Virus record (IMG/VR): IMGVR_UViG_3300020478_000007
Coordinates: 54 to 64,053 of that record
Direction: 5' to 3' (one strand)
From: a virus
Taxonomy: Duplodnaviria; Caudoviricetes
Length of the DNA stretch: 64,000 bases
Below the pieces are notes generated by a model, which saw only the letters and a list, made by a program, of their open reading frames with translations, was not told where the DNA came from and did no database searches. Positions 2,423 to 56,831 of the stretch are shown here, in pieces. A program made the position numbers and the translations under genes. Position 1 is the first letter of the stretch; each line of letters opens with the position of its first letter.

Positions 2423-3138
2423 AAGTAACACTGACTCGGACCCACCAGAACCCTCCTCAAATAACTCAATGTCGCCCGCGACGAGAGTGGATGGACGCGA
2501 CATATAAAAAACATGCCTACAAGTGTCTGCCCTTAACCGCCGCCAATGTCAATGGTTGGGAGTTAAGACTCCAACAAGATGTAGTAGTTAAATGGGATGG
2601 AGGGAACACGGTCCCTAAAGTCTTAAGCGGTGAAAAGATCACACACACGTTAGAGAACGGCCACGAGTACGAACGCGATGTTGTTGTCCCGAGCATTATT
2701 AGCATCATGTCTTTCACTGTCGGGTGGGCCATAAACACACCACCAGGGCACAGTGTTCTGCTATCAGGCCCTCCTAATTATTTTATTGATGGCGCCGTTC
2801 CGTTAACTGCGATGGTTCCTGGTTGGTGGCCAGACGAAGTGAATATGAATTGGATGATGACCACTCCTGGCAAAGAAGTTGTCTTCCCTGAGGGTATGCC
2901 ATTTATGTTTTTTCAGATCGTTGAAGACGATTTTCAGTGCAATGTGGAATTAGATGTTAAGAACATTTGGGATGACGATCAATTGATGGCCTCCCGCCAA
3001 TCGTATGGGAATGCTAAAACGGCTAAAATGAGAGAACAGCCATGGTCATGGATGGGGAGTGTCAGAACTGGCCTAAACGAAAAGGGTGAGCAGATAGGCC
3101 CCAAACATGAGGGGCACCCAACGCTTCAGGAGCCATAA
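2419..3138 (+). CDS. DUF6065-like protein
   Basis: RREWMDAT..HAYKCLPLTAANVNGWE and SGPPNYFIDG motifs. Confidence 0.75.
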   Translation: MKVTLTRTHQNPPQITQCRPRREWMDATYKKHAYKCLPLTAANVNGWELRLQQDVVVKWDGGNTVPKVLSGEKITHTLENGHEYERDVVVPSIISIMSFTVGWAINTPPGHSVLLSGPPNYFIDGAVPLTAMVPGWWPDEVNMNWMMTTPGKEVVFPEGMPFMFFQIVEDDFQCNVELDVKNIWDDDQLMASRQSYGNAKTAKMREQPWSWMGSVRTGLNEKGEQIGPKHEGHPTLQEP

Positions 3139-14500: not shown

Positions 14501-15873
14501 TTCAACTAACGCCTGAAAGTCTCCAAGTCATAACAGCAGATGCTAATGATCCTGCTACAGCGGCTCTCATTGAGAGAGCCAGTAATATGAAAAAACTTGG
14601 TGTTTCTCATTTCGGGCCAGCAGGTGAAGTTCTTGGTGAAGCACTGGGTGACGGTGTCTCGATGGGGATTTTCAATTCTGATGGGGAGTTGATTGACTCG
14701 GGTATCGGGTTGATGAACCGTCTAATCACACGTTTGATGGAATTCGCTGGTATATCTAGCCCCTCTCAATTGACTAAAAAAGAAATCGGTGAACCGATTG
14801 TTACTGGCATCATTCTTGGGATAGAAGAAAAACGACAAGATCTTGTTAATGCGACAAGAGAAGCAGTTGAGTTGGCTCTAAACGGGGCGAAACGTCGGGT
14901 GACGGCTGTGATGGCTGCTATCCGTGCTGAACTTGACATGCAAGACGCTCAAGCCAGAATTAACAAATTGACACGAGACACGGCTGGTTCAGGAATATCT
15001 AGGCGTGAAGAACTCATGGGCAAAATATTGGGTCGCCGTGTTAAAGAAGCGAAACGTGCGATGCGTTTAGGCCAAGGCCATTTAGATGAACTTCAATTGG
15101 CTGTTTTAGATGCCGAAAATGCTCAAGAAGACTTTGATCAAGAAGCACGTTCAGGTTCTGAACTCCAAAGAGCGCAGGTTGCGTTAATGCAATCTGGGTT
15201 TGATGCTGCGGAAGCCCAAGCGAAAATGAGGATGGAAGGCGAATCCGCTATAGGCATGTTTAAAGAGTTGGCTACCACTATGGGAATAGCGGTAGGTGGG
15301 ATCAACCAATTGTTAGATACTGGTTCTGACCCTAACGACATGTTGTCAAAGATTTTCAGTGAAGACATGATTGAAAAAATTGAATTCGCTGCGACAGAAA
15401 TGGCTTGGATCAAAGAAAAAGCAGAAGAACTTTCTAATGTGACACCGCCGTGGGCGAAATGGGCTTTCCCTGATTTCGCTTTCGAACTGGGCCAAGCAAA
15501 TGCACCAACTAATGTAAATAGCGGTGGGACTGGGCTGACTCAATCAGACTTACTAGGGGTAAACCCTGGTCAATCTTTAGCAATGACCGGCAGTGTAGAT
15601 TTCGCTGGGATGAGCGCTGGCACCGCAGGTCAGTACACGACACTGCCAGTTAATTCACAAACATCAAATGATGTAATTGTCCAAGGTGACCTCGTTAACA
15701 ACTTTGGCAGCGCTCCTGAAGATCCTGATGCCTGGGCATCGTCAATTAAGAACAAGGTAAGAGAGGGACACTTTAGCGACAGCCCAGAAGTACGAAGTGC
15801 TGTTGGCGCTGCTACCGGTGCTCAGGTTAGTAACCAGTGGGGTTGGGTTGATGGATTTGGAGGTTATGGATAA
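11551..15873 (+). CDS. Tail tape measure protein
   Basis: 1440 aa Ala-rich helical; TP901-type core (ADFEATMTRI, ELAEAMFFISSAG); GISSPS motif. Confidence 0.95.
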   Translation: MAVQLPPLVQTIVLDPTGVKAGAGAFAKSMGSVNKATDAANTGMLGLGNNLSTVAFRAQTAGRALRNKLGLPLVAIGALAAKSFADFEATMTRIESLVGISAAGVSKFADSVQEVSRETGRGPKELAEAMFFISSAGLRGAAATDVLNNSARAAALGLGQTKVVADAATSAINAYGIENLGASQATDVLVAAVREGKVEADRLAPAIGKAIPVASAMGIEFHEVAAAIASMTRTGTDARTSAIQLRQIMQSLLDPSRQATKALKEMGVAEGELRRQADEEGLLAVLKRLRDLSIENADAFADVFPNVRALAGALDITGANLEENEGIFRALANSTGDTAEGYAKVQKTIRQQVLEAFAKLQNAMIDLGKSMGPLVDVFVFFVEKAAALIQFFADNKWATATVAVFAALAVTVGTLATGFAVAAQMVIGFKTVMTSTIATATVLGTQLTALKLAMISTGIGALIVGLGTALAFVMKFGKGSKSAAKEAAELRLAIDDIRMVAGRAVKPLIEMGGALQGLSSHADPTVKAFFDTYADAINDAKSLGDDIARLQAEDSLLQMFFGSGDTEENRKALDTIVKNLQLSLRDFELFDRLFEGGDVSFEEAFTAFLIGEDTAAQTRRAIRTMTDRVIATTDDVFKEMGESLAFEREKNPAFDSVEWLNLPSEEELGQELAGLNAFMDNDLTDALEVPARILDQAMRSGRTQEFSSLWESIMTQAGQHAHLFGLTTEEMRMMVETNLMSAIHLMDDFTEDTGRGLDTLQGMLLAIAGSDADTRDFLLAKFDESGAEWWTHMAEAYEKSLRMLERERHEHEGMLDPLNRHNEALRLAGWEVEGVAKKQQGLNNVTEKYEEIMQDVLDDMATGFETANKNIKEFQRRWDMLIGTSTDFNALQREFRQGQTDLKEAFDALGGASLFNQSPAADAANEALEDQINLAGEFAAEVFGATNDMEQAEAALMSYLDAIARVAAGTGVNMDEFTEMMAGLQLTPESLQVITADANDPATAALIERASNMKKLGVSHFGPAGEVLGEALGDGVSMGIFNSDGELIDSGIGLMNRLITRLMEFAGISSPSQLTKKEIGEPIVTGIILGIEEKRQDLVNATREAVELALNGAKRRVTAVMAAIRAELDMQDAQARINKLTRDTAGSGISRREELMGKILGRRVKEAKRAMRLGQGHLDELQLAVLDAENAQEDFDQEARSGSELQRAQVALMQSGFDAAEAQAKMRMEGESAIGMFKELATTMGIAVGGINQLLDTGSDPNDMLSKIFSEDMIEKIEFAATEMAWIKEKAEELSNVTPPWAKWAFPDFAFELGQANAPTNVNSGGTGLTQSDLLGVNPGQSLAMTGSVDFAGMSAGTAGQYTTLPVNSQTSNDVIVQGDLVNNFGSAPEDPDAWASSIKNKVREGHFSDSPEVRSAVGAATGAQVSNQWGWVDGFGGYG

Positions 15874-33523: not shown

Positions 33524-34234
33524 ATGCGGGATGAGACAATGCCAGAGGGGCCGTGGGAATTTGATAAGGGGGTTACTGAAGTGTTTGAGGACATGCTCGA
33601 ACGCAGCATTCCTGACTATGAGAAGATGCGGAATGCGTCGTCGGCTTTAGCGTTTGCTTCGGGCCCTGTTGACCGTGTCTTAGATATTGGTTGTTCTAAT
33701 GGCTTGGCTTTAAGGCGACTAGACAAGTATGCAGAGGTGGAAGGGCACAAGATAAACCGTTTGATAGGGCTAGATGTATCAGAGCCGATGCTTGAAAAAG
33801 CGGCAGAAGAGTGTCCCGATAATAACCGTTATTATTTTCTTAACCATGATTTGAGAGAACACTTTCCTTTCCCGCATGATTCTTTTGACGTGGTTTTAAG
33901 CGTTTTAACGCTCCAGTTTGTGCCGATTGTTCATAGGTTGAGGATCATGGATGAGGTGCACAGGATTTTGACACCTGGCGGAAGACTGATATTTGTAGAG
34001 AAGGTGCTCGGGAACGGGGTATTGCAAGACAACATGGTAGAGGTGTACCACGACCATAAAAGAGAGATGGGGTACACAGAGGAACAAATAGAGCGGAAAA
34101 AGTTAAGTTTGGAAGGCGTCATGGTCCCAATAACATCCTCATGGAATGAAGAATTACTGGATAAGGCGGGCTTTGCTGTCCGTGATTGTTTCTGGCGGTG
34201 GATGAACTTCTCTGGATGGGTGGCAATAAAGTGA
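33524..34234 (+). CDS. cmoA: CmoA-like (carboxy-SAM synthase family) protein
   Basis: WEFDKGVTEVFEDMLERSIPDY, LDIGCSNG, LTLQF, FVEK, SLEGVMVP, WMNF. Confidence 0.8.
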   Translation: MRDETMPEGPWEFDKGVTEVFEDMLERSIPDYEKMRNASSALAFASGPVDRVLDIGCSNGLALRRLDKYAEVEGHKINRLIGLDVSEPMLEKAAEECPDNNRYYFLNHDLREHFPFPHDSFDVVLSVLTLQFVPIVHRLRIMDEVHRILTPGGRLIFVEKVLGNGVLQDNMVEVYHDHKREMGYTEEQIERKKLSLEGVMVPITSSWNEELLDKAGFAVRDCFWRWMNFSGWVAIK

Positions 34235-34878
34235 AAGATCCAGCACGTCCAGCAGGCAAATTGATATTGCCTAAAGAAAAACGAGAGATGCTTCTCAAAT
34301 TGATTTCAGCAGGGAATTACCAACGGACTGCTTGTCGAGCAGCAGGGGTTTCTGAATGGACGTTTAACGATTGGCGTAAAAAGGGGGAACAGGCACGTGA
34401 AGACAAAGACAATGGGATTGCGCTCTCAGAAACGCAAGAAGAATTACTCTGGTTCGTTGACGAACTTGACGAAGCCCGTGCAAAAGCCGAAGCAGCACTC
34501 GTTGCACGTTGGTATAACGAAGCCGCAGACGGAGACTGGAGGGCGGCTGAAAGGTTCTTGGCAAAAGCATTCCCAGAAAGATGGGCAGATCCTGCGACTC
34601 GTTTGGAAGTTACAGGCGCACAAGGAGGGCCAGTAGCGCAACTTTCTGCCCATATGCATGTTCTTACTGAAGCAGATGGTGAGAAACAGCGTAAAGTATT
34701 AGAAGCGCTAGTTGAATCAGGCGATTTGCCAGAAAATGTTTTGGAGGCATGGGATGGAGAAGACGGAGACGAGGGACAAATTATCGACGCTGATGTCGTA
34801 CAAGACCCCGTGCAATCTCCTGATTCCGCACACTCCTCACCCGAAACAGCAAGCCTTCCTGACGTGGAACACGACTAG
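34231..34878 (+). CDS. terS: Terminase small subunit
   Basis: ACRAAGVSEWTFNDW HTH, GDWRAAERFL, LEVTGAQGGPV; upstream of terL. Confidence 0.85.
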   Translation: MKDPARPAGKLILPKEKREMLLKLISAGNYQRTACRAAGVSEWTFNDWRKKGEQAREDKDNGIALSETQEELLWFVDELDEARAKAEAALVARWYNEAADGDWRAAERFLAKAFPERWADPATRLEVTGAQGGPVAQLSAHMHVLTEADGEKQRKVLEALVESGDLPENVLEAWDGEDGDEGQIIDADVVQDPVQSPDSAHSSPETASLPDVEHD

Positions 34879-36088
34879 GGAAGCACTATTTGGGGGAGCG
34901 GCAGGTGGTGGAAAATCTGACACGCTACTATTCGCTGCTCTCCAGTACGTTTGTGTTCCTGGTTACTCAGCCCTCCTCCTTAGGCAGACGTTTCCTCAAC
35001 TTTCCGGTCCTGATGGTTTTATCGACAGAACTACAGAGTGGTTAAAGTCAGTATCTGATTACAACGTAACTAACAAACGGTGGACATTCGATTCTGGGGC
35101 CACGCTGACATTAGGGCACTGCGAAAGAGACGAAGATAGGTATAACTTCCAGTCTTTCGCTTATCAATTTGTTGGCGTTGACGAGTTAACTCAGTGGGGA
35201 ACAGACCGAGTGTATTTGTATGTCGGGTTCTCTCGTGTGCGTAAACCTAATCCCGATCCTTCTTTAAGAGCATGCCCGCATTGTGGGATGACACTTGCGG
35301 ACGTCCCATTAAGAGTTAGGGCTGCTACGAACCCTGGAGGTAGAGGAAACGATTGGGTCTATGACCGTTTTGTTTTGAACAACACGAACGACAGAAAGTT
35401 CATGCCAGCAAGGATCACGGATAACCCCTCATTAGACAGAGAAGCCTACGAAGCAAGCCTTATGGAGTTAGACGCTGTGGAGCGTGCACGCTTATTGGAA
35501 GGCAATTGGGAGGTATCTGAAAAAGGAGGCATGTTTGAGCATGACTGGTTTGAAACTGTTGACAGAGTGCCAGAACTAGATGACATGAAAAAAATTCGTT
35601 TCTGGGATTTAGCAGCAACAGCAAACGCTAAAGGCAAAGACCCTGACTGGACAGTTGGTGCACTAGTCGGCATATCCGATGGAAGGTATTACGTTCTAGA
35701 CATACAGCGGTTAAGGGGAACCCCAGCAGAGGTAGAGCGACGAATTCTTATGACAGCGCAACAAGACGATACGAAAACAGATATTTGGATGGAGCAAGAA
35801 CCAGGGGCGAGTGGCGTGAACACGATTGATTATTACGCAAGAAGAGTGCTCGTTGGTTACCCGTTTAAAGGGATTAGGTCGTCTGGTAGCAAAGAAGAAC
35901 GTGCCCGAGTGTTTTCGACCGCATGCGAAATGGGCAATGTTAAACTGTTGAGAGGACGTTGGACAAAAACGCTTATAGATGAGTGTGTCCAATTTCCGAA
36001 GGGGAGTCATGACGATCAGGTTGATGCCGTATCAGGGGCGATCAATCATTTGTCAAAGAGGAAAGCCAAAGTGAGATTGATTTTATGA
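34754..36088 (+). CDS. terL: Terminase large subunit
   Basis: PHPKQ, GGAAGGGKS, VDELTQ, ATNPGG, WDLA, PDWTVG, HDDQVDA. Confidence 0.96.
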   Translation: MEKTETRDKLSTLMSYKTPCNLLIPHTPHPKQQAFLTWNTTREALFGGAAGGGKSDTLLFAALQYVCVPGYSALLLRQTFPQLSGPDGFIDRTTEWLKSVSDYNVTNKRWTFDSGATLTLGHCERDEDRYNFQSFAYQFVGVDELTQWGTDRVYLYVGFSRVRKPNPDPSLRACPHCGMTLADVPLRVRAATNPGGRGNDWVYDRFVLNNTNDRKFMPARITDNPSLDREAYEASLMELDAVERARLLEGNWEVSEKGGMFEHDWFETVDRVPELDDMKKIRFWDLAATANAKGKDPDWTVGALVGISDGRYYVLDIQRLRGTPAEVERRILMTAQQDDTKTDIWMEQEPGASGVNTIDYYARRVLVGYPFKGIRSSGSKEERARVFSTACEMGNVKLLRGRWTKTLIDECVQFPKGSHDDQVDAVSGAINHLSKRKAKVRLIL

Positions 36089-36525
36089 ACCCATATGAAA
36101 TACAAAGACGGATGGTTAAAGCATGTGCTTTGGTGGACAAAGCAGAGGAACTCGGATTTTTGCCAGATGAGTTAGCGAAAGAACATCCTAAAGCCAGAGA
36201 AACATTAGCCAAGATGTGTGGCGTTAAACCACCTTCGTTGGAAACGTGGGAGATGGTCGTAGATCTATTGGATAAACGTGTCTCTTATGAAGGGGAAGGC
36301 GGTTTAGATGATCCTCGGTTTATCCAACATCTGGGCTCTATGGCTGTTGAGATAACTGAAACACTTATCAAGCACAACGTTGACAGCGGTGAAGCAGCGA
36401 ACCTTTCAAAGAGCGAAAAACGCCGTGTAGCGAGGATGTCGAAGGCTAGCGATGATGAAAGAACATTTGAGTTGGGGCAGAAGTTCTTAGAGATGCGTGA
36501 AGAGCATAGGCTTAAAGGGACATGA
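36085..36525 (+). CDS. Hypothetical protein
   Basis: Coupled to terL. Confidence 0.7.
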   Translation: MNPYEIQRRMVKACALVDKAEELGFLPDELAKEHPKARETLAKMCGVKPPSLETWEMVVDLLDKRVSYEGEGGLDDPRFIQHLGSMAVEITETLIKHNVDSGEAANLSKSEKRRVARMSKASDDERTFELGQKFLEMREEHRLKGT

Positions 36526-37055
36526 ATACTTTCGTTTCGGTTCCCTTTTGGTCTGCTGAGAAATGTGATGCGATTGTGGAGCGGGTAGGGAAAACCGCTG
36601 GGCATGAAGTGTTGACTAGCGTTAAAGGGGAAGCCCCTGTAGTTGATAAGTCGGTGCGTCAAGCCGATATGCATGGGATGAATGATCCATCAATAAACGA
36701 CGAAATATTGGAGTGGGTGTTAAGTAACAACGAATGGGGATTCGAGTTAGGTGGAGGGTTGCCTTCTGTCGAAGTCCTCCATTATGTAGAGGGCGGTTTC
36801 CAACAAGCGCACACCGACTGGGGTGGCACTCATAATAAAAGAAAATTGTCCTTTTCTATCCAATTGTCGCCGCCTGCCAGTTATGAAGGTGGGGAGTTGA
36901 TCCTGCATGATGGTCCTCGGCCTTGGATGGCTGATATGACGCAGGGTTCTATCACTTTGTTTCCTTCGTGGACATTGCATTCAGTTCAAGAGGTAACGGC
37001 AGGTGAGAGATGGTCTGCTGTTGGGTGGCTTCTTGGTGGGAGTTCTTATGTCTAG
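36522..37055 (+). CDS. PKHD-type Fe(II)/2OG oxygenase
   Basis: HTD, RKLSFSIQLS, YEGGEL, FPSWTLH, GERWS. Confidence 0.92.
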   Translation: MNTFVSVPFWSAEKCDAIVERVGKTAGHEVLTSVKGEAPVVDKSVRQADMHGMNDPSINDEILEWVLSNNEWGFELGGGLPSVEVLHYVEGGFQQAHTDWGGTHNKRKLSFSIQLSPPASYEGGELILHDGPRPWMADMTQGSITLFPSWTLHSVQEVTAGERWSAVGWLLGGSSYV

Positions 37056-37635
37056 TGTTTTTGTGACAGAACCAATATTCTCACCTAGCGAGTGCAACGA
37101 AATTATTGAGTCAGTTAATAAGAAAAAAAACATTGAGTTTCAAAATTGCTGTCCTCCTGGTGTTTGCCGTTACGCAGAAACAGAGGGGTTAGAAGAGTTC
37201 CACGGTCAATGTGGTTACAACCTGAGACAGTCTCTTAGTTTGCAATATGATCAATTCCCTTTTGTGTTCCAAAAGTTTTACGACGTTGCAGAGTATTACA
37301 ACGACAAGTATTACGGTTTTGAAATTGAGAGCGTGTCAGAAATCCATATAAATAAGTACGCAGCAAGTGACAGACAATTAGAGGCTCATATTGATTGGGG
37401 ACATGTTTTACCAACTAAACGGAAAATCACGGTCTCTATGTCACTGTCGCCTTTAAGCGCTTATGAAGGTGGCATTCTAAGTTGTTATGAAACTGATCAA
37501 CCTGTCATAGGTGCTATCGAGCAAGGTGCTGCGACGGTATTCCCTTCTTGGACACTCCATGAGTTGTCTCGGATTACCTCAGGCGAACGTTATTCCGCTG
37601 TGGGATGGATTGTTGGGACTAACTCATTTAGATAG
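37048..37635 (+). CDS. PKHD-type Fe(II)/2OG oxygenase
   Basis: HID, RKITVS, YEGG, FPSWTLH, GERYS. Confidence 0.9.
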   Translation: MSSVFVTEPIFSPSECNEIIESVNKKKNIEFQNCCPPGVCRYAETEGLEEFHGQCGYNLRQSLSLQYDQFPFVFQKFYDVAEYYNDKYYGFEIESVSEIHINKYAASDRQLEAHIDWGHVLPTKRKITVSMSLSPLSAYEGGILSCYETDQPVIGAIEQGAATVFPSWTLHELSRITSGERYSAVGWIVGTNSFR

Positions 37636-38715
37636 CGAGTAGCCTTGTTTCTCGAACACTTCGTCGCCTTCTTTAAACCTGTCGCCGCCTGATTTGTTTA
37701 ATCCTTCACCTTCTAAGGGCCGGTTTTGGGCTATTGGGTTGTAATAAAAAGGCTGGTTGTCCCATTGGGGGGATTTTTTGAAGACTTCAGTGTAGTCATC
37801 GTGGAGGGTGTTTAACCAAACTGGTTGCGTCCATGAGTTGGTCATGTGTGGTTCTGCAACGTCGGGATCTGGGAGGCCATTGGTGCCTTGCCCGAAAGCA
37901 CATAGGTAGGCGTGACGGTCCCCACTTTCGACTGTTGTAATTTCGTGCATTCCCATAAAGTTCGCAGGAAAGATTATGACGTCCCCAGCGTCTAGATCGA
38001 GATCTAGGTCAAAGTACGGGAATTTGAAAACACCGCCTGTGTAATCTCGGCCTGATTGACTTAAGTTGCAAGTAACGGAGATTGTCTGTCTGGAGGGGAA
38101 TTCACTCATTGGGTGGTACCGTTTCCCGTTTACAGTTCGGTAGTTGGTGTCGCAATCAGCGTGTGCGCCTATGTGTCCTGTCGTCCTGTAGCGCATGAAG
38201 TGTCCACGTGTACGCCACCAGAGTTGGTTGACGATATAAGGGTACTTATCGATGTAAAGCATTAAACACTTGTACACCGTGTCTTCCCAGTCATGGAATA
38301 TGTCTGTAAATTCTTTTGGTGTCCCGTCGTGCCCTTCTCTGGCTATGTCAGTGATGCAGTGCAGCATCCGTATCGGGGCAGTTTCAACTTGCTCAGGAGT
38401 GAACTTGTTGTCGTCTTCATTAAGGGCATAGGGTTTCCCGGCTTCGTCTTCGAAGTATCGCCAGCGTCTACCGTGCGCTATTTCTGATTGTTCGTTAAGC
38501 CATGGTTCCAAAGCGTCCCATTTGCTCATGTCGAGAGCCCCGTGGAATACGGAGATACCGCCTACATGGTGGGTGGAAGGCCATTGAAGTATGTCTTCGG
38601 CTATCTCAGCGGTTATTTGGGGGGTGCGCCCATAAAAAAAATTATGCGTGTTCCCATCCTGGGCCTGCTTTCCAGCCTCTGGCCCGTTTAAGTTCGGCGA
38701 GGGTGAAAGTGTCAT
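37624..38715 (-). CDS. Fe(II)/2OG oxygenase (WWxxRGH paralog family)
   Basis: QLWWRTRGH, HAD, FPANFMGMH, FGQG. Confidence 0.88.
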   Translation of the reverse strand: MTLSPSPNLNGPEAGKQAQDGNTHNFFYGRTPQITAEIAEDILQWPSTHHVGGISVFHGALDMSKWDALEPWLNEQSEIAHGRRWRYFEDEAGKPYALNEDDNKFTPEQVETAPIRMLHCITDIAREGHDGTPKEFTDIFHDWEDTVYKCLMLYIDKYPYIVNQLWWRTRGHFMRYRTTGHIGAHADCDTNYRTVNGKRYHPMSEFPSRQTISVTCNLSQSGRDYTGGVFKFPYFDLDLDLDAGDVIIFPANFMGMHEITTVESGDRHAYLCAFGQGTNGLPDPDVAEPHMTNSWTQPVWLNTLHDDYTEVFKKSPQWDNQPFYYNPIAQNRPLEGEGLNKSGGDRFKEGDEVFEKQGYSLSK

Positions 38716-41445: not shown

Positions 41446-41661
41446 ATGACTATTATGATAACCAAGGATCTGGTTGAGCGAGTAGTAGCAACTTTCGTTC
41501 AAGCAGCAATCGGAGCCATGTCTTCGAACTCGATGTTCGATCTCGGCGTGGACCAATGGAAGATGATGGCCGGTGCTGGTGTTGCCGCAGCCGTCTCAGT
41601 AATAAAGGGTGCCCTTGCAACAAAGATCGGCACACCTGGTACAGCATCTCTGGCTGACTAA
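41446..41661 (+). CDS. Holin (actinophage r1t-like)
   Basis: KDLVERVVATFVQA...AAAVSVIKG...GTASL. Confidence 0.85.
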   Translation: MTIMITKDLVERVVATFVQAAIGAMSSNSMFDLGVDQWKMMAGAGVAAAVSVIKGALATKIGTPGTASLAD

Positions 41662-41940
41662 TCCCCTGTCTTGCCAGTAGCCGGGGGGCAGATTCACACT
41701 TGTGGTCTGTCTCCCGGTTGCATACCAGATTCACACTCACCCCAAATTCACACACTGTGTCACAGATTCGGTTGTCTCCCAGATTCACACACCGGAGGCA
41801 AATTCACACTGTGTCCCAGATTCACACACCGGGAGCACCGGAGCGTTGTCTCCCAGATTTTTGACCGGGTGTCTTTACCGGAGAGCGCTGACCGGAGACC
41901 GGAGTGCACCGGAGTTTGCCGGACAGTTTTGCCTTTTTGG
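41662..41940 (+). repeat. Intergenic module 1: 6x ATTCACAC + CCGG-rich tract
   Basis: ATTCACAC at 41692, 41729, 41746, 41783, 41802, 41820. Confidence 0.85.
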
Positions 41941-41978
41941 GGTGTGACAAAAGTCACAAAGATATCGTCAATTGGGTG

Positions 41979-42006
41979 TTGACTTTTGCTGTCAAAGTCC
42001 TAGAAT
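41979..42006 (+). promoter_or_regulatory. Promoter
   Basis: TTGACT-N16-TAGAAT; contains a TTGAC-N7-GTCAA inverted repeat. Confidence 0.65.
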
Positions 42007-43729: not shown

Positions 43730-43872
43730 CGCCGGAGGGGTTAACGCTCCTCCGGCGAAATTCACACACCCAAATTCACACGCCGTTGTGTTCCCAGATT
43801 TGTGTTCCCAGATTTACCGGGAGCACTTTTCTTTTTTTCGCCAGGGACCGGGAGCCGGAGGTGCCGGAGCCC
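43730..43872 (+). repeat. Intergenic module 2: hairpin + 2x ATTCACAC + CCGG tract
   Basis: CGCCGGAGGGG/CTCCTCCGGCG stem; ATTCACAC at 43760 and 43774. Confidence 0.8.
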
Positions 43873-43931
43873 TTTCGGAATAGTTCAAATAGGTCGTTGT
43901 GTTTAGGGTCAAGTGACGGTAGACTCTAGTC

Positions 43932-44732
43932 ATGATTGAAATTAAACGTAAGCCATCCCTATCCCAATACCTAAAGAGCCAGACACCGGACCTTGTCGAT
44001 TACGACACCGCCCGCCAAGCATGGTATGACCACCGACCGGACGTCGGCAAACAGCCCTATCTCTCTTTACCCAATAAGAAGATCAAGAAGAATGAGATCT
44101 ATACAGTTTCGTTTACCGGAGCGCCTCATCGGCTCGGCGAATTCAACGCATGTACAGCATCGACGCCGGAGTGTAGACGTGTTTGCATAAGACACACCGG
44201 ACGCCTACAGATGCCCACTCAAATGAAAGTAGGGCTTGACCGGATGGAGTTCATGCGACTCTTCCCATCTGAGGCTCTATCTCTCATTCATTGGGAAACC
44301 ATCAAGATGTCTAAGAAGTTCGACCGGATCGCTCGTCGGCTCAATGTTGTGACTGATCTCCATTTCGAAAATTTCGCACCTTGGTTATTTGAGGAAGCGC
44401 CGGAGAACTGCATCACCTACGACTACACGAAGCACTGGAACCGGGCGGAGTTTCCTGCTGATCGGTACCGTCTCACCTACTCGGCAACCGAGAACCACAA
44501 CTATGACCGAATCAAAGAACAGGTAGCCGGGGGCGTTAACGTCGCTGTCATCTTCCCGAATGAACACAAGGACACCGGGTACTCTCCACGCTGGCATGGT
44601 ATGCCTGTAATCGATGGGGACATAACTGATCTCCGCTATAACGACCCTGCCGGACATGTTGTGGCTCTGTATGCAAAAGGTCAGGCGAGGAAGATCACAC
44701 CGGGGGAAAACGCTTTCGTAAAGGTTTTCTAG
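43932..44732 (+). CDS. Mycobacteriophage gp88-like protein
   Basis: C..S...C...C, RLNVVTDL, YDYTK, LTYS, NVAVIF, VIDGDITDLR, LYAKG. Confidence 0.75.
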   Translation: MIEIKRKPSLSQYLKSQTPDLVDYDTARQAWYDHRPDVGKQPYLSLPNKKIKKNEIYTVSFTGAPHRLGEFNACTASTPECRRVCIRHTGRLQMPTQMKVGLDRMEFMRLFPSEALSLIHWETIKMSKKFDRIARRLNVVTDLHFENFAPWLFEEAPENCITYDYTKHWNRAEFPADRYRLTYSATENHNYDRIKEQVAGGVNVAVIFPNEHKDTGYSPRWHGMPVIDGDITDLRYNDPAGHVVALYAKGQARKITPGENAFVKVF

Positions 44733-44836
44733 TGCGGGCCGGGGGCCCAAACAAATCTGGGTTAAATCCGTTGAAAGACATCAAAACCTGGTACACTAGC
44801 AGTAGACGGAAATACCGTCGGAAAGGGGATCCAGAA

Positions 44837-45241
44837 GTGGATTCAATAACCAACCTCCTTAAGGCACTGGCGGAAGCCATCAAGCCTTACCTAGGACTGC
44901 CGGAGGAAGATGAGCAGTTCAACCCCAATGACATCCGTGCTGAAGTAGAGACAGCGTTAGAAGAAATTGATCTTCATGATGCAGTCCACGATGCGCTTGA
45001 CCGACTTGACTACCCAAACGAAGACCGGGTGAATCGCATGATCCAAGATTATGTCGACTTCGAAACCGACTTCATAACCAACGATGACTTCGACCCATCA
45101 TCTCACTACTTGGTGACCCATGATGAACTTGACGAAGCCGTCACTGACACCATTGATCGCCTACTAACAACCGAGTTCCTCATTGAGAAACTTGCTGGCG
45201 ACGGGTACACAGTCACCCGCAAATCTGCGGAGGCAGCATAG
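44837..45241 (+). CDS. Hypothetical acidic protein
   Basis: GTG start after GAAAGGGG. Confidence 0.65.
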   Translation: MDSITNLLKALAEAIKPYLGLPEEDEQFNPNDIRAEVETALEEIDLHDAVHDALDRLDYPNEDRVNRMIQDYVDFETDFITNDDFDPSSHYLVTHDELDEAVTDTIDRLLTTEFLIEKLAGDGYTVTRKSAEAA

Positions 45242-45554
45242 CCTCCCGGAGGGGTTGGGTTATCCAATCTCAGATCACGGTCCCTCACTGGTTCACAACA
45301 AAATCAGTTGAGGGATTCGTGGTCCGAGATTCGGATCTTCCCTTTTGCCCCCACCCATACTTTCGGATCGCCCCCAGGATTTACTTAACGCCGGAGCGTC
45401 AGTTTGCCAGCGTTTGGATTTATGAAAAGGCAGTATTGACCTTTCTGACTAAATCACAAATCAATGGGATCATTCTGGGAGTGGAAGCATTACCAACACA
45501 TAGAACTACTAACGATGGCCGGACACTGTATGTCGCGGCTTAGAAAGAAATGAT

Positions 45555-45917
45555 ATGAAATACAGCAAGATGCAGGCGCTCTATGATGACCGTCAGCAAT
45601 TAGCAGCAGCATTCCGAGACTTACGCCGGAAGGGCTGGTGGGCACGCATGAACTATATGTGCTGCCAGAGTTGCGCTACAGCAATGACCGATGACGATAA
45701 GCCGTATATCGGTTTCCATAATCAGGACAACGACAATATCGAGTGGTATGGGTACACGTACCTGTTTCACGGCCCTCCAGAAGGGAAGCGTGAAGAAGGA
45801 CAGGCGTTGTCAAAAGAGGCGGTGGCTGTTATTGAGTCACATGGCCTCAATGTCGAATGGGATGGCGACATGGGTTCCCGTATCAAAGTGTTGATGGGGC
45901 CACAAGACTCTGATTAG
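45555..45917 (+). CDS. DUF6891-like protein
   Basis: LAAAFRDL...ARMNYMCCQSCA...GLNVEWDG...RIKV. Confidence 0.65.
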   Translation: MKYSKMQALYDDRQQLAAAFRDLRRKGWWARMNYMCCQSCATAMTDDDKPYIGFHNQDNDNIEWYGYTYLFHGPPEGKREEGQALSKEAVAVIESHGLNVEWDGDMGSRIKVLMGPQDSD

Positions 45918-45943
45918 CATCTAGTCAACCCTCCCTAGGTTAT

Positions 45944-46160
45944 GAAGCCCCGTCAGGAAACTGGCGGGGTTTCTCTATTCAGATTCACACTCCCAGATTC
46001 ACACTCCGCTGTGGATTCACACCTGTGCCGGAGAAGGCGGTTGTGCCGGAGGGCCGGGGGCTCTGGGATGGGGACACCGGGGGACCGGGGGCTAACCGGA
46101 GGCTGGGAGAAACCGGGGGTCGCCGGAGAAATCGGGTGCCGGGAGGCGTTGAAATATTTC
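45944..46160 (+). repeat. Intergenic module 3: terminator-like hairpin + 3x ATTCACAC + CCGG tract
   Basis: GAAGCCCCGTCAG-GAAA-CTGGCGGGGTTTC; ATTCACAC at 45983, 45997, 46015. Confidence 0.85.
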
Positions 46161-46249
46161 TGAAGAAATCGGTGCTAAATGCGTATGAAGTCAACTATTA
46201 GGTGATATCGTGAAGGGTATACATAAACGAGTGGAAGTGAGGTTCCATA

Positions 46250-47155
46250 ATGAGTAAGCCGGACGCAATCATCACCAAGATGACTGAAGCCATAGTTAAA
46301 GCCATGAAGGACGAGCCGGAGGCTTGGACAAAGCCTTGGGCTGGAAATTCAGAATTACCAAACAACCCTGCTACCGGGACAATCTATTCAGGTGGCAATG
46401 CATTCATGCTGATGTTGTTCTCGCCGGACGCATCTGATCCACGCTGGTCAACATATAAAGGGTGGGAGAAGTTAGGCGCACAAGTTAGGAAAGGTGAGAA
46501 GGGTACCGGGATACTCTTCTTCAATCCTTCTTGGAAGAATGACAAAACTGGCAAATGGTCAAAGACCATGCCGGAGGGTCCTATTAACGTGATCAAAGAA
46601 GAGGGATGGAGCCAAGTAGGTGTGCTCCGGGGGTACGCAGTATTCCACGCTTCCCAATGTGATGGTGTTGAGCCATTCGAACAGCCGGAGGTGTCTGACT
46701 TCAATGTTGACGATCATCGTGAATGGTTCCAAAGCGCCGGAGCGGATTGGGAAGAGAAGCCATCGGACATGGCTTACTACTCCCCTAGCGTGGACAAGAT
46801 AGTGACGCCGGAGGCTTCTCAATTCCACACTCTTGAAGGATGGTTTGGGACTGTCGCTCATGAGTTCACACACTGGACCGGACACAGTTCACGTCTAGAT
46901 CGTGCCCAGTACAACATGTTCGACCGGAGCGGTTATGCGTTCGAAGAATTGGTTGCGGAACTAGGCGCTACTTTCCTATGCAAGATGCGAGGAGTAGAGA
47001 TAGAGACCAGACCGGACCACGTTCGCTATATCAAATCTTGGTTGAAGGCTCTTGACAATGATCCCAAGTTTATATGGGACGCCGCCGGGAAAGCCTCTAA
47101 AGCCATGAACTACATACTAGATAACACAACTGACCGGAAGGAGGTCAAGGTATGA
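46250..47155 (+). CDS. ardC: ArdC-like antirestriction protein (ssDNA-binding N domain + MPTase)
   Basis: WTKPW, YSGGN, W.TYKGW, QVRKGEKG, AYYSPSVD, HEFTHWTGH, YAFEELVAELG. Confidence 0.92.
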   Translation: MSKPDAIITKMTEAIVKAMKDEPEAWTKPWAGNSELPNNPATGTIYSGGNAFMLMLFSPDASDPRWSTYKGWEKLGAQVRKGEKGTGILFFNPSWKNDKTGKWSKTMPEGPINVIKEEGWSQVGVLRGYAVFHASQCDGVEPFEQPEVSDFNVDDHREWFQSAGADWEEKPSDMAYYSPSVDKIVTPEASQFHTLEGWFGTVAHEFTHWTGHSSRLDRAQYNMFDRSGYAFEELVAELGATFLCKMRGVEIETRPDHVRYIKSWLKALDNDPKFIWDAAGKASKAMNYILDNTTDRKEVKV

Positions 47156-47367
47156 GGGAGATAGTGAAGAACGACGCCGGAGAAGTCATCGGTGTTGAAT
47201 ATACATATGAGCGCTCCCCCGGAGACATTGCGGATGACTGGTACTCATCTTGGGAAGACGAAGAAGTAATGGATCTACCGGAGGACTGAGAAATAGTGCC
47301 CCTATGCGTGTGATTGTTGTATAGGGGCGCTATACTCATATATAAGCAAATGGAAGTGAGGTTCCAA

Positions 47368-47583
47368 ATGAAAGATACAAACCGGAGGGCTCTAACCCTC
47401 GAAGAAGCCATAGCCAAATTGGATGACTCTATTAGAGAACTCAATGAGGCAACTAGGGAGTACCGGAGCGCTAATCCGTTCTTGGATTGGTCTGCTTGGG
47501 ATGCTTTGGAAGAACAACGAGCATTAAACCAACTGCCGGACCCCATGGACGAAGCCAAATACAACAATGAGGAGGTTCTATAA
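47368..47583 (+). CDS. Hypothetical protein
   Basis: Leader TGGAAGTGAGGTTCC identical to that of ardC; start MKDTN. Confidence 0.6.
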   Translation: MKDTNRRALTLEEAIAKLDDSIRELNEATREYRSANPFLDWSAWDALEEQRALNQLPDPMDEAKYNNEEVL

Positions 47584-47750
47584 TGAGTATGGATCCCTAC
47601 TACGTGCCGGACCAAGGCTTAGAGCCACCGGACTTTGAACCCTGCCCTGAATGCGGTGGGGAGTGCCCGGACGCCATCAGGTGGGACGACCTTGATTATG
47701 TCTGTGCCGAGTTGAAACAGAAACTCGGCTGGGACATCCTCACGGTATGA
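47583..47750 (+). CDS. Small Cys-containing hypothetical protein (not in ORF track)
   Basis: TAATG coupling, GGAGG RBS, CPECGGEC. Confidence 0.5.
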   Translation: MSMDPYYVPDQGLEPPDFEPCPECGGECPDAIRWDDLDYVCAELKQKLGWDILTV

Positions 47751-47799
47751 CAACCTAGCGATGGGTAACATAGGTTTGCCGGAGCCTCACATCCGGTAA

Positions 47800-47987
47800 G
47801 AGACTCTGGGAGGGTGGGTACTTTCCCTCCTTTCGACTCAACCCTCTCAGGGTCTCGCTAAATTCACACTCCTAGATTCACACGCTATTGTGCCGGAGCC
47901 ATTGTACCGGAGCACCGGGGGCTGCCCGGAGACACCTGGTACCGGGGAAAGCCCGGAGGGGTTTTGGGGCCCGAAGGCCCCGCTGCC
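47800..47987 (+). repeat. Intergenic module 4: hairpin + 2x ATTCACAC + CCGG tract
   Basis: ATTCACAC at 47862 and 47876. Confidence 0.8.
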
Positions 47988-48230
47988 CTAGAAAGCGTGG
48001 TTAATCGCAAACTCTAACTCGACATCACAGGCTTCGAAAAACTCGTGAAAGTCGAAGTTGTCATTCGCTTCCCAGCAGATCTTCGCTAGATGCCCCGCTA
48101 GTTGATTCTTCACAAATGAAATATCAACTACTGCCAACTCGTTCTTATGTAGAACTTTTGCGCTCACAGTCTCGGGGAATTCTGCAACAACCTCCGCTAG
48201 TTGGTTGAAGTGTTTTTTTGAAAGTGCCAT
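47988..48230 (-). CDS. Conserved small phage protein
   Basis: LSKKHFNQLA...NDNFDFHEFFEAC; AAAGGAG RBS. Confidence 0.7.
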   Translation of the reverse strand: MALSKKHFNQLAEVVAEFPETVSAKVLHKNELAVVDISFVKNQLAGHLAKICWEANDNFDFHEFFEACDVELEFAINHAF

Positions 48231-48299
48231 TTTAATCTCCTTTGCGGCATCTGGTAATAGTTAACTATACCACTAGTAGTGGACGTTTCCTCACTTTTA

Positions 48300-48470
48300 T
48301 TCAAAAAAATCCACACCCAGATTCACACGCCAAAATTCACACAGCGCTGTCCCGGAGGCATTGTCCCGGAGGGCGCCTGGGACCGGGGGACCGGAGGCCA
48401 AATTCACACCTATAAGGTCGATACGGTTTGTACCGGAGGACCGGAGGAGACCGGAGGCTGTATCTGGGCG
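48300..48470 (+). repeat. Intergenic module 5: 3x ATTCACAC + CCGG tract
   Basis: ATTCACAC at 48321, 48335, 48402. Confidence 0.8.
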
Positions 48471-48481
48471 AAAAAAATGGA

Positions 48482-48512
48482 TCGAACGTTTGTTCGACGA
48501 ACGTTTGTTCGA
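48482..48512. promoter_or_regulatory. Tandem LexA (SOS/Cheo) boxes
   Basis: TCGAACGTTTGTTCGA followed by CGAACGTTTGTTCGA. Confidence 0.8.
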
Positions 48513-48585
48513 CCCTTGGAGGGTGGCGGATTCTGTTGCCAAGTTCCGCCGAACTCCGAGTCTTACTCGCTATGCCATGGGCTGG

Positions 48586-48975
48586 CTAGTCCTTGAGTGG
48601 CTCGACATCTACCGAGTTTCGATTCTCGATATCTGCCAAGTAGGCGCCTAGGTCCTCAGCGCATCGTACCGTCACTTGACGTTCGACAACTTGAGTACCT
48701 TCAGCCTCACCGGTGCGACCCTTCGGGCGATGCCATGAAACTCGATACAAATCGTTTCCGAGTTTGGCAACGTGGATCAAAGTTTTGCCACCAGCCCAAG
48801 CGACATGCCATCCACTAGTACGAGTTTCGACTAGTGGGGACAACCCTTCGACTGCCGTACCTTTGACTGCATCGCCAAAGTACTTCAAGAATGAAGCACG
48901 CTGACCGACTGCACTCATTGGTTTGCCAGTCTTTTTGTTGGCTTTGTTGTGAGTGATCTCTGCCATTTTTTTCAC
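48586..48975 (-). CDS. Hypothetical protein (paralog of 52318..52764)
   Basis: SFLKYFGDAVKG, LGNDLYRVSW, RQVTVRC. Confidence 0.75.
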   Translation of the reverse strand: MKKMAEITHNKANKKTGKPMSAVGQRASFLKYFGDAVKGTAVEGLSPLVETRTSGWHVAWAGGKTLIHVAKLGNDLYRVSWHRPKGRTGEAEGTQVVERQVTVRCAEDLGAYLADIENRNSVDVEPLKD

Positions 48976-49078
48976 CTCCTTTTTTGCCTCGTTTTGTATA
49001 CCCTTAGTTTACAGTATGGGAGTGACAAAATGACAACTTTAGGTGGACAATTTGACAAATTTCTTAGATTTTTTTTAG

Positions 49079-49094
49079 TCGAACGTTTGTTCGA
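49079..49094. promoter_or_regulatory. LexA box
   Basis: TCGAACGTTTGTTCGA. Confidence 0.8.
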
Positions 49095-49282
49095 TTGCAT
49101 GAAAATTTTTTCTACTTTGACTTGCAATTAAAGTCAATACCTAGTAGACTGTTTACAAACCAGGCTCATCGCCCCGGGGGCCGGAGGCCCCAAAAAAGCG
49201 AGACCGCCGAGCGAAGCCAACACGCCCGACGGTCTCTATAGCCTTGTGCCTAGGAAAGGAGATAACTAGGTGGCTATTAAAT

Positions 49283-49594
49283 CTATTCTTCTAGTTCTTT
49301 TTGTTTGGCTTCGAATTTCTCGGCGAACCTTTTCGCCTTCTCCTTTTTCGCTTGGTTGTGTCCGTCTATCATTCTCAACTTGTAGGAATCATAATCGGCT
49401 TTGTTGAAATTGTCCGGCTTTCTTTTACCGCTGACCCGTACGGCATTGATTCCGTTACTCCAAATATGGTCTATGCGACCTGAGTGGATGCCATCGAATA
49501 AACAATCTTCGGGCGTGTCATGTAAAACGTTTTCATAATCTCCCGTTCCGTTTGCTTCTTCAATTGTCCAATCTTTCCATTCTCTGTCTTCCAT
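49283..49594 (-). CDS. Hypothetical protein
   Basis: AAGGAG RBS. Confidence 0.65.
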   Translation of the reverse strand: MEDREWKDWTIEEANGTGDYENVLHDTPEDCLFDGIHSGRIDHIWSNGINAVRVSGKRKPDNFNKADYDSYKLRMIDGHNQAKKEKAKRFAEKFEAKQKELEE

Positions 49595-49655
49595 TTTTTC
49601 TCCTTGTTTGTTTTGACTTTTGGTTGGGGGAGAGCCGAAGCCCTCCCCCGTTATT

Positions 49656-50066
49656 TTAAACTGTCGCCCTCATTGCTTGCATCCGTGAGACACAAGTTTC
49701 GACGGTCAGTATTTCGCCTTTTCCGAAGACGTCCATATCGGCAGTTTGCTTTTTGCTCCATGCTTCAGGGACTGGCAAAGTGTTGCCTTCTCCGTCGTGG
49801 CTGGTGAACACAACTGGTCCTACCAACTGGTAGCCACCGTGTCCGTTTTCTCCATTGACGACGAACGTTCCGAGCAAGTTAAAAACAAAGTCGCCTTTGA
49901 TTAATCCTTCCTCGTTGACCCATGCATCAATCTCTGGAGTGACTCGGACACATTCGATGTATCCACCGACGAGTGCTTGAAGATCTGCTAACGAGTTTTC
50001 CGTTGGCTTTACTTTGTAGACACTCGCATCGTCATCTATCACTAGATAGTGTTCCATCCTTTTCAC
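49656..50066 (-). CDS. DUF3846-like protein
   Basis: LADLQALVGGYIE, WVNEEG, LVGPVVF. Confidence 0.8.
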   Translation of the reverse strand: MKRMEHYLVIDDDASVYKVKPTENSLADLQALVGGYIECVRVTPEIDAWVNEEGLIKGDFVFNLLGTFVVNGENGHGGYQLVGPVVFTSHDGEGNTLPVPEAWSKKQTADMDVFGKGEILTVETCVSRMQAMRATV

Positions 50067-51714: not shown

Positions 51715-51850
51715 CTAAGTCGTCTAAATTCACACGCCAAATTCACACCTACCCGGTCACCCGGAGAGCGCCGGGGGCGCTCACGCTGAACTCAACGCCT
51801 GGACCGGAGGCAAAATTCACAGGTAATTTTCGAGTTCCGGCTGTGTGAGG
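51715..51850 (+). repeat. Intergenic module 6: 2x ATTCACAC + CCGG tract
   Basis: ATTCACAC at 51728 and 51741; variant ATTCACAG at 51815. Confidence 0.75.
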
Positions 51851-55803: not shown

Positions 55804-56001
55804 ATGAGTACCACGCTCTCGGATCCTGACGACGAATTCATCCAATACCTTCACGATGAATGGGCTATGCGTACAGACGACCCAGACTCCGAAGACGAGT
55901 TCGGGAAATTCTTAAAAGCGTTTGTTGACATAGCGGGGGCCTGGGAAAAAGGAGACGATGAAGAGCCACCCAACGATCCGCTTGGCATAATGGGAGTCTG
56001 A
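55804..56001 (+). CDS. Hypothetical acidic protein
   Basis: TGATG coupling to the next gene. Confidence 0.6.
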   Translation: MSTTLSDPDDEFIQYLHDEWAMRTDDPDSEDEFGKFLKAFVDIAGAWEKGDDEEPPNDPLGIMGV

Positions 56002-56831
56002 TGCTACGGATTAGCCCTTATTCTCATGGCGGCGTAGATCAAATTATTGAAGACATGCAAGGATGGGCTTGGGAGTTTGTCCACCACAAAGCAATCGGCT
56101 TTGAAGATTTACACCCGAGTAAAACAGAACAGCAAGCAATCATGAGAGCGCTTTACGACAGGTTCGACACACGGTGCACAGAATGCAACGAAGCGCCTCG
56201 TCCGAGCCTGATAACACAGTTAGGGATTCATGACCAAGGGTTCTTCCACGGTGAGATTGAAGAAGTCGAAGAACGCAATTGGCATATGGATGACGCTACC
56301 TTTGAAAAAACGACAGCGATTATTGGTTTGCATCTAATCGAGTTTGCTCATCCCCCTGGGCCAGTCGGTAACACCGTGTTCTGTGACATGGAGCGGCTTT
56401 TCCAACAAGCCCCTGAAGAGACACAAAGGTATGCACAACAAACACGAATGTGGCACACAGAGCCGGAAGGTGCATCTGATGGTGTCGAAGAAAGAGATTA
56501 CGCAATCTCAGGCGCAGTTCATGACGGTGTCCGTATCCACCCTGCGACTAAACAAATGAGTTTCTACGTTCCTAATTTTTGGTTTGAACCAGAAGAAGGG
56601 AGCACGCCAGAGTTCGTTGAGTACATCGAATACATAAAAGAACAGGTTTATGATCCCTCGAATCAAGAAAGATGGATTTGGAACGAAGGCGACTTTCTTA
56701 TTTGGGACAACAGAAACCTGATGCACACAATGAGCGGAGGGTGGGCTGCTGGGGAACGAGTTTTTAATCGTTCCTCGATAGGGCACGAAAAACCAATCGG
56801 GGTTTCTCAAGATCTGTTACTCTTTCAGTAA
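56001..56831 (+). CDS. TauD/TfdA-like dioxygenase
   Basis: NWHMD, GNTVFCDM, RIHPAT, WNEGDFLIWDNRNLMH. Confidence 0.9.
   Translation: MLRISPYSHGGVDQIIEDMQGWAWEFVHHKAIGFEDLHPSKTEQQAIMRALYDRFDTRCTECNEAPRPSLITQLGIHDQGFFHGEIEEVEERNWHMDDATFEKTTAIIGLHLIEFAHPPGPVGNTVFCDMERLFQQAPEETQRYAQQTRMWHTEPEGASDGVEERDYAISGAVHDGVRIHPATKQMSFYVPNFWFEPEEGSTPEFVEYIEYIKEQVYDPSNQERWIWNEGDFLIWDNRNLMHTMSGGWAAGERVFNRSSIGHEKPIGVSQDLLLFQ

Follow-up and report, generated by a model that had tools for sequence, protein, structure and literature searches.

Few codes are known to be laid over genes, among them Chi, KOPS, stoperators and the one-strand bias of restriction sites. Does the short asymmetric word CCGGR (R, purine; Y, pyrimidine) belong with them and, if so, what reads it? 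The question is raised by a 64,000-nucleotide stretch of virus DNA (hereafter the window), which comprises bases 54–64053 of the 64,053-bp record IMGVR_UViG_3300020478_000007 (Duplodnaviria; Caudoviricetes) and whose sequence is present in marine/seawater metagenome runs, none of those listed being an RNA run. A preliminary description of the window, counted by hand, had noticed that CCGG flanked by purines is written into two genes, ardC and a gp88-like gene, and had proposed a polar second code overlaid on coding sequence. Our analysis confirms the observation and shows a stronger signal than was described: the core word is CCGGR, it is gathered on one strand of an arm of small cassettes behind the holin gene, and it is nearly absent from the same strand of the main body. 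The system makes it possible to test how the first-acting genes of an uncultured marine phage family are controlled, protected or timed, and would also provide a sequence signature for spotting such arms in metagenomes; if the reader of the word proves new, the mechanism could be new too.

CCGGR on the two strands of the window and of its relatives

Directly behind the holin gene, between 41.6 and 49.3 kb, lie 88 of the 99 + strand copies of CCGGR in the window. In this 7.5-kb arm the word occurs 88 times on the + strand and 12 times on the − strand, while the body carries 6 and 32 copies, respectively. The preceding purine sharpens the picture further: RCCGGR has 84 + strand copies, 79 of them at 41.6–49.3 kb, as compared to 35 − strand copies with only three in the same interval, and the CCGG sites of positions 1–40 kb fall into the flank classes RR (0), YR (1), YY (21) and RY (17). 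The original hand counts proved exact on recount, with 15 CCGG in ardC (15 followed and 14 preceded by a purine), 13 in the gp88-like gene (all with a purine on both sides) and five in the tape-measure gene, none of which is followed by a purine. The span that had first been singled out, 43730–48470, is indeed enriched (74 CCGG, 72 with a purine after), and the density of CCGGR climbs towards 46–48 kb, as had been stated, but the region is wider, running from 19 bp past position 41661 to ~49.2 kb with a further module at 51.7–51.8 kb.

The enrichment survives synonymous shuffling. Over 1000 shuffles, the 13 RCCGGR of the gp88-like gene compare with a mean of 2.68 and a maximum of 8, and the 14 of ardC with a mean of 3.97 and a maximum of 9; the other nine arm open reading frames (ORFs) hold 0–3 RCCGGR each, none individually significant. 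Since the total of RCCGGR on both strands of the whole window is ordinary (119 versus 95.7 ± 10 in shuffles) and its distribution is skewed, the signal is one of placement and strand. Outside the arm, the 51 + strand ORFs, including those at 52–64 kb, have three RCCGGR where 25.8 are expected and a single YCCGGR where 25.2 are expected. In an unbiased comparison of 5-mers and 6-mers, CCGGA and CCGGG were the most arm-enriched words both in the window and in one relative, which defines CCGGR as the core word. Together, the synonymous shuffles and an unbiased scan for under-represented 5-mers (described below) rule out chance or base composition as the source of the pattern.

We then followed the word through related genomes. 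A nucleotide search of a phage collection returned no near relative, and an alignment scan of viral contigs with gp88 yielded a single, distant locus; a TerL search of viral contigs yielded 37 loci with 77–99% identity and a guanine-plus-cytosine (GC) content of 43–62%. Our family set consists of eight genomes or large fragments, namely the window (labelled G000), G001–G006 and L177 (GC 43–62%), which are syntenic from the tail genes through the holin gene, and terminase and replication genes are conserved across the family. For the pooled test, ORFs of at least 70 aa were called greedily and without curation in the bodies of the eight genomes and compared with 300 synonymous shuffles. The 190 + strand ORFs (163 kb) hold 16 CCGGR on the + strand where 306 are expected, and 218 on the − strand where 298 are expected, counts that do not stand for eight independent events given that the genomes are related, though the positions of the sites have turned over. 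The 49 − strand ORFs (23.8 kb) hold two + strand copies versus 37.0 expected, with the lowest shuffle at 22, and 26 − strand copies versus 37.7. Minus-strand genes are thus purged on the + strand as well, and the exclusion tracks the DNA strand rather than the sense of the gene. A codon or translation effect is ruled out by this antisense purge and by the use of all three reading frames in the arm; a reading at the level of the mRNA of each gene is disfavoured by the same antisense purge, unless rightward transcripts cross everything.

Expressed per kb, CCGGR in the eight genomes amounts to 0–0.23 on the + strand of the body, 0.3–2.8 on its − strand and 4.7–12.6 on the + strand behind the holin gene, a same-orientation enrichment in the arm of 40–100-fold. 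The 37 TerL loci, which overlap the eight genomes in part and were cut 3 kb past TerL (293 kb), hold 21 + strand versus 434 − strand copies, with 23 of the 37 lacking any + strand copy. The − strand copies are background: in the body they are spaced at random (coefficient of variation (CV) 0.81–1.10; 0.87 in the window) and lack the extended consensus described below. As they are also at background in the arms of GC-rich relatives, a mirror-image, bidirectional polarity about the holin junction was dropped. In a scan for under-represented 5-mers, only words containing AGCT rank below CCGGA and CCGGG in G000, G001 and G004. CCGGR is invariant in all eight genomes, whereas the avoided palindromes vary (AGCT in G000, G001 and G004; GATAT and GAATT words in G002), which argues for a conserved reader and not for a strain-specific restriction enzyme.

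AGCT is a palindrome, and its loss is of the kind classically attributed to restriction. In the window AGCT is absent where 247 copies are expected from base composition, and CGCG is found 40 times versus 203 expected; 5-mers containing AGCT are near zero in G001 and G004 too, and G002 avoids GATAT and GAATT words instead.

Even spacing within two genes and iteron modules between cassettes

The assignment of ardC is supported by an ArdcN domain (PF08401, 6.8e-25), a zincin MPTase-PolyVal domain (PF18818, 5.2e-38) and a match to phrog_7245 (3e-70). Within ardC and the gp88-like gene the copies of the word are not merely numerous but evenly spaced (Table 1). Across the family the mean in-gene spacing is 51–74 bp with a CV of 0.20–0.40 as compared to ~0.9 for random placement (P ≤ 0.003 in nine of nine gene tests), and the largest gap never exceeds 127 bp in any of the nine. 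ardC carries 11–20 copies in four of four genomes and the gp88-like gene 11–15 copies in four of five, the fifth, G003, having one copy; most other arm genes hold 0–3. In the window this load corresponds to ~16 copies per kb in ardC and the gp88-like gene versus no + strand copies in the arm's four minus-strand genes (47988–50066).

Altogether, genes contain 48 of the arm's 88 copies, and these in-gene copies use all three reading frames. When the window is aligned with G001, just 4 of 13 sites in the gp88-like gene and 5 of 14 in ardC fall in a shared column, while the others have moved with density and spacing kept. The preliminary description had suggested a comparison of ardC homologues: six unrelated homologues from other phages (35–38% identity) hold 0–4 sense and 0–3 antisense copies and lack the pattern, which rules out that ardC genes carry this motif load in general.

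Between genes, the copies are organised in six modules with a common grammar, in which two to six iterons ending in ATTCACAC are followed by 3–10 CCGGR (Table 1). ATTCACAC is found 21 times on the + strand of the window and never on the − strand. A longer form of the iteron is visible in relatives, TGCA..CCAGATTCACAC of ~18 bp, followed by short repeats and an AT-rich stretch at each cassette edge. In the arrays the word extends to CCGGRGG, the next base being G in 34 of 40 module copies versus 22 of 48 in-gene copies; the base before CCGGR depends on lineage: the window and G002 have a purine, L177 has C, and G003, G005 and G006 have either. The architecture of the first module, M1, recurs behind the holin gene in all seven genomes that reach this point, with the first iteron or CCGGR 19–220 bp past the holin stop codon. 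Every cassette examined in the window has a module at its left edge, which in + strand cassettes places it upstream of a sigma-70-like promoter and in − strand cassettes (M4, M5 and M6) at the 3′ end. Searches of the modules against Rfam gave three sub-threshold matches only, and a scan with a gapped iteron pattern gave, among the matches listed, mostly chance matches. The preliminary description had rightly seen the motif in genes; the + strand exclusion, the ATTCACAC iterons, the arrays at cassette boundaries and the even in-gene spacing are additional to it, and the polar second code that it proposed holds up, being strand-exclusive, spread over three reading frames and conserved in relatives.

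Table 1. Features of the window, with the CCGGR modules and the two genes carrying evenly spaced copies
Feature	Coordinates	Strand	Remarks
Main body	1–41660		Tail, replication, ParB_N, terminase and lysis genes; + strand purged of CCGGR, − strand at background
Tail-fibre-like end and many Fe(II)/2OG oxygenase paralogues		mostly +	First in the gene order of the window
Major tail, tape measure and tail tip genes	11551–15873 (tape-measure gene)		After the oxygenase paralogues
Replication initiator, RusA and SNF2 helicase			After the tail genes
Two ParB_N proteins and methyltransferase			After the replication genes
TerS and TerL	34186–36088		Between replication and lysis genes
Lysis cassette	41446–41661 (holin)		Last gene encodes an r1t-type holin
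Arm behind holin gene			Small cassettes including the GP88 gene and the ArdC gene, then minus-strand genes flanked by a putative palindromic operator
M1	41662–41960	+	6 ATTCACAC iterons, then 10 CCGGR; begins 19 bp past holin stop codon
Sigma-70-like promoter of first cassette (predicted)	41979–42006	+	TTGACT, 16-nt spacer, TAGAAT; 10/12, consensus match only
M2	43731–43870	+	Hairpin, 2 ATTCACAC iterons, 5 CCGGR
gp88-like gene	43932–44732	+	Pfam GP88; 13 RCCGGR, mean spacing 60 bp, CV 0.31, P = 0.00005
M3	45944–46143	+	Terminator-like hairpin, then 3 ATTCACAC iterons and 9 CCGGR, upstream of ardC
ardC	46250–47155	+	15 CCGGR, mean spacing 62 bp, CV 0.20, P < 0.00005
Small ORFs downstream of ardC	47152–47750	+	Even spacing persists; 24 copies in total at 46250–47750
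M4	47862–47960	+	2 iterons, 6 CCGGR; at 3′ end of minus-strand gene, no + strand gene after
M5	48321–48455	+	3 iterons, 7 CCGGR; left of minus-strand gene 48586–48975 and its putative palindromic operators
M6	51728–51808	+	2 iterons, 3 CCGGR; behind HNH endonuclease gene, left of minus-strand gene block
Exonuclease	59561–60343		PHROG match
SSB	60693–61118		PHROG match

Variation between strains was followed in contigs from four other sequencing runs. One 10-bp array unit at 48439 is absent in all four. Among 40 listed of 262 substitutions, none falls in a CCGGR core, a number too small to serve as evidence given that only ~2.4 are expected, and one swaps the purine at −1 for the other purine. 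A 34-nt insertion at 47284–47286 is present in three of the four runs.

The minus-strand genes of the arm have a repeat of a different kind. The 16-bp palindrome TCGAACGTTTGTTCGA is present in two tandem copies at 48480–48511, on the 3′ side of the minus-strand gene 48586–48975, with a near-copy at 49081–49096 on its promoter side; the gene encodes 129 aa and matches no family. By their arrangement, palindromes and gene look like a putative operator and repressor pair, and the palindromes at 48.48–48.51 and 49.08 kb differ in sequence from the CCGGR arrays. The DUF3846 gene and the 129-aa gene, which lie on the minus strand in the window (47988–50066), have the opposite orientation with respect to TerL in G001 and G002, and cassette order differs in L177 too: the arm is a shuffled, partly inverted mosaic.

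Candidate readers of the word

The ~95% purge that is blind to gene orientation, the neutrality of the − strand copies and the same-orientation pile-up in the arm jointly argue that the word is read one way by a one-way traveller, and that each copy costs something wherever the path must be completed. As kinds of polar signal, the preliminary description had named KOPS- or Chi-type signals, terminase-binding arrays and a modification or decoy array in first-injected DNA, all of which are candidates here. It is from the observed counts, polarity, conservation, placement and spacing that we infer a direction of reading, a traveller and an effect of the single copy. Our preferred reading, which we put forward tentatively, is that CCGGR is a polar pause, stop/termination or roadblock word for rightward transcription that insulates and times the anti-defence cassettes. 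CCGGR (CCGGRGG in arrays) would then be the family's strand-specific control word, read in the + orientation only, by a reader travelling rightward, i.e. in the direction of nearly all genes, and every copy would slow or stop the traveller slightly. The word would have been purged from the + strand of all that must be crossed (late, structural, replication and terminase genes, as well as stretches of small genes on the opposite strand) and gathered where stopping helps, namely at the left edges of accessory cassettes beside the TGCA..CCAGATTCACAC iterons and, with a spacing of 50–75 bp, inside ardC and the gp88-like gene. The traveller would most likely be the transcription elongation complex, which might sense the word via the non-template strand, via the nascent RNA or via a phage protein bound as a polar roadblock. 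The role of the arrays would be to shield each cassette from read-through out of the late operon, that of the in-gene copies to brake the anti-restriction genes or shut them off.

A small cost per copy over a long obligatory rightward path would yield exactly the purge that is seen, 16 of 306 expected copies over + strand genes and 2 of 37 over minus-strand genes. Transcription is suggested as the process by three features of placement: the end of the last late gene is where the arm starts, modules mark the edges of cassettes, and the in-gene copies are found only in the sense of + strand cassettes. In addition, pairs of sigma-70-like promoter hexamers are depleted at 1–20 kb of the window (9 versus 28.9 ± 4.8 in shuffles), which fits long operons in the body. 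A precedent for a polar, orientation-dependent block to elongation is provided by the stoperators of cluster A mycobacteriophages, which, like the words described here, are numerous asymmetric sites located between genes; they work in one orientation only, block elongation as CCGGR is proposed to, and are intergenic 13-mers in ~20–30 copies that flip with local transcription (PMC9283540). In contrast, the core described here is 5–7 nt long, more than half of the arm copies lie in genes (48 of 88), and minus-strand genes are not mirrored. Orientation does not follow local transcription, the minus-strand genes holding 26 copies in their own sense versus 37.7 expected and the arm's four minus-strand genes 0–1. 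Stoperators are bound by the immunity repressor of the phage; no such repressor was recognised here.

Several points weigh against transcription as the process that the word controls. Rightward transcription would have to cross the minus-strand blocks of the body, and the 635-bp gap that precedes the major tail gene could hold a promoter of its own, in which case the equally strong purge over minus-strand genes argues for a DNA motor. Minus-strand genes hold the word in their own sense at background, so that either a single copy is weak or only one form of the polymerase responds. A core of 5–7 nt is short for a protein roadblock, and dense stops in ardC would damp ardC's own expression unless the early polymerase ignores them. 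No candidate reader emerged when the sequences of three unknown proteins were searched against solved structures (nothing below E = 0.009), and the modules match no Rfam family.

A more specific version of the transcription reading, which we consider doubtful, is that a phage-encoded or polymerase-bound reader senses CCGGR on one strand as a family-specific series of speed bumps, the density of the word setting the speed and the reach of a one-way machine; the likeliest such machine is transcription, possibly coupled to genome entry. If this were true, the phage would restrain and insulate the anti-restriction arm while keeping the other 55 kb or more clear of the word, and a graded, evenly spaced code within coding DNA would specify when cassettes act and how they are insulated.

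The traveller could instead be a DNA motor, i.e. a packaging terminase, a rolling-circle fork or the machinery of genome entry via the tail (staged, as in T5-like first-step transfer), with the arm as a braking or termination zone or as the zone that enters first. We regard this as rather unlikely, yet should rightward transcription not cross the minus-strand blocks, a DNA motor would be the better traveller. A machine crossing all DNA is expected to purge minus-strand genes as strongly as + strand genes (2/37 versus 16/306); the conservation of terminase and replication genes in the family would allow for an invariant reader encoded by the phage itself; the density of the word climbs towards the right of the arm; and short direct-repeat arrays beside iterons may resemble pac or terminal-repeat regions. 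The T5 first-step-transfer region and the T7 left end similarly comprise an early anti-defence arm with one-orientation short repeats upstream of host-type early promoters. The T5 and T7 repeats, however, lie at known physical ends and do not run evenly through coding sequence, unlike the words in this arm, and we know of no genome-wide purge described for them. Moreover, the reading of a 5-nt word is not known from any motor that packages, replicates or ejects DNA, and a motor leaves unexplained the concentration of in-gene copies in ardC (four of four genomes) and the gp88-like gene (four of five) with the minus-strand cassettes of the arm spared, as well as the tracking of cassette edges by the modules. 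The record also has no terminal repeat, and no portal or capsid genes were recognised in it.

Comparably doubtful is the proposal that CCGGR is the recognition word of a host end-processing helicase-nuclease of the RecBCD/AddAB class, the arm being a Chi-like array near a genome end that would halt degradation of an entering or concatemer end within ~100 bp and start recombination. Terminal Chi clusters provide the precedent: in phage LLS, 20 of the 23 Chi sites are actively oriented and the majority lie close to the right end, and phage MD8 has 32 in one orientation and none in the other (PMC12315714). The arm resembles these cases in that tens of short asymmetric words of one orientation run through genes and are concentrated in a single part of a siphophage genome, terminal or accessory (PMC12315714), and the one-orientation clustering seen here is clear (CCGGR 88 + versus 12 −; RCCGGR 79 versus 3). 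The invariance of CCGGR is what one would expect of Chi words, which are short, asymmetric and conserved across related hosts; dense, even spacing with no gap above 127 bp in nine of nine gene tests suits protection at every point; the arm contains anti-restriction genes; and three related contigs stop 9.6–9.8 kb past the holin gene, which could be a true end. This proposal, however, gives no reason for the removal of the word in the same orientation elsewhere, and the purge (16/306) is the strongest signal of all. LLS belongs to a class without recombination (Rec) modules, whereas this phage encodes an exonuclease and an SSB itself; the copies in ardC would be redundant behind at least 20 copies to its right; the iterons and the placement at cassette edges are unexplained; and the contig ends fall at repeat modules, which break assemblies. 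The word also differs from the Chi of LLS and MD8 in having 5–7 rather than 8 nt, in its ~90 evenly spaced copies, in being purged ~20-fold in the same orientation elsewhere and in the iterons that accompany its arrays.

An orientation-dependent restriction or defence system (Type III, Type ISP, MANTIS- or BREX-like) that recognises CCGGR is less probable still. One-strand depletion of the body would remove cleavable inverted pairs, and the arm would serve as a harmless tail-to-tail partner on linear DNA or as a sink for the enzyme while ardC is expressed. The CCGGG form of the word lacks an adenine for the usual N6-adenine hemimethylation, which weighs against such a system. One-strand depletion is a known escape, all 36 EcoP15I sites of T7 having one orientation (PMC3874151), and both single-strand depletion and single-strand enrichment in phages are reported in a preprint (10.64898/2026.09.23.753747); as in these two sources, an asymmetric word of 5–6 bp is nearly gone from one strand over tens of kb. 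The heavy restriction pressure seen in the loss of AGCT (0 versus 247 expected in the window) and the presence of ArdC in the arm point the same way. In contrast to the T7 EcoP15I and MANTIS biases, however, the opposite orientation is here massively enriched in one arm, which creates inverted pairs, and the word is invariant across a family with GC contents of 43–62%. The sites do not all point the same way (32 − and 6 + in the body, 88 + in the arm), and the remaining sites of the body are all inverted relative to those 88, the worst arrangement for a genome facing an inverted-pair enzyme unless the DNA is linear with its ends at the point of convergence. Avoidance predicts depletion and not 40–100-fold enrichment, and restriction specificities vary by strain, yet CCGGR is invariant in 8/8 genomes while the avoided palindromes differ.

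Plain binding arrays for an iteron-binding initiator, a partition protein or a repressor that do not involve one-way reading, or recombination joints for cassette shuffling, could hold for the iterons alone given the ~18-bp TGCA..CCAGATTCACAC iteron with short repeats and AT-rich stretch at every cassette edge, the strand exclusivity of ATTCACAC (21 versus 0), the variable cassette order with one block inverted in the window and the array copy number that varies between strains, but as a full explanation they are refuted, and highly improbable overall, since an isolated site on double-stranded DNA is the same to its binding protein in either orientation, leaving the strand-specific purge unexplained, as are the evenly spaced copies in two genes.

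No single known system explains why related genomes should show, over more than 160 kb, a near-absolute purge of one strand in combination with the pile-up in the arm and even, position-shifting copies within genes. In the literature we found polar Chi clusters, restriction strand bias and stoperators, and no description of the CCGGR word or of this combination of features; a full-text search for the two words themselves brought up primer lists alone.

Gene order, contig ends and side observations on the record

Nearly all genes of the window are on the + strand (Table 1). No terminal repeat is present in the 64,053-bp record, and no portal or major capsid gene was recognised across it; the record probably represents part of a genome whose gene order is unusual. 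No tRNA genes were found. Relatives occur in two metagenome-assembled-genome bins, whose labels conflict.

The three independent contigs that end soon after the holin gene are those of G001, G002 and G003, and they stop at or near a repeat module; three contigs, the window's record included, start within ~1.3 kb of one point near the tail-fibre-like gene. These shared starts and ends may reflect true termini of the genome or, alternatively, repeats or variable genes at which assembly broke off.

Finally, ~11 Fe(II)/2OG oxygenase or TauD paralogues are located at 1071–7810, 36522–38715 and 56001–56831, and in the same 64-kb record they are accompanied by an amidohydrolase, a short-chain dehydrogenase and a class I methyltransferase.

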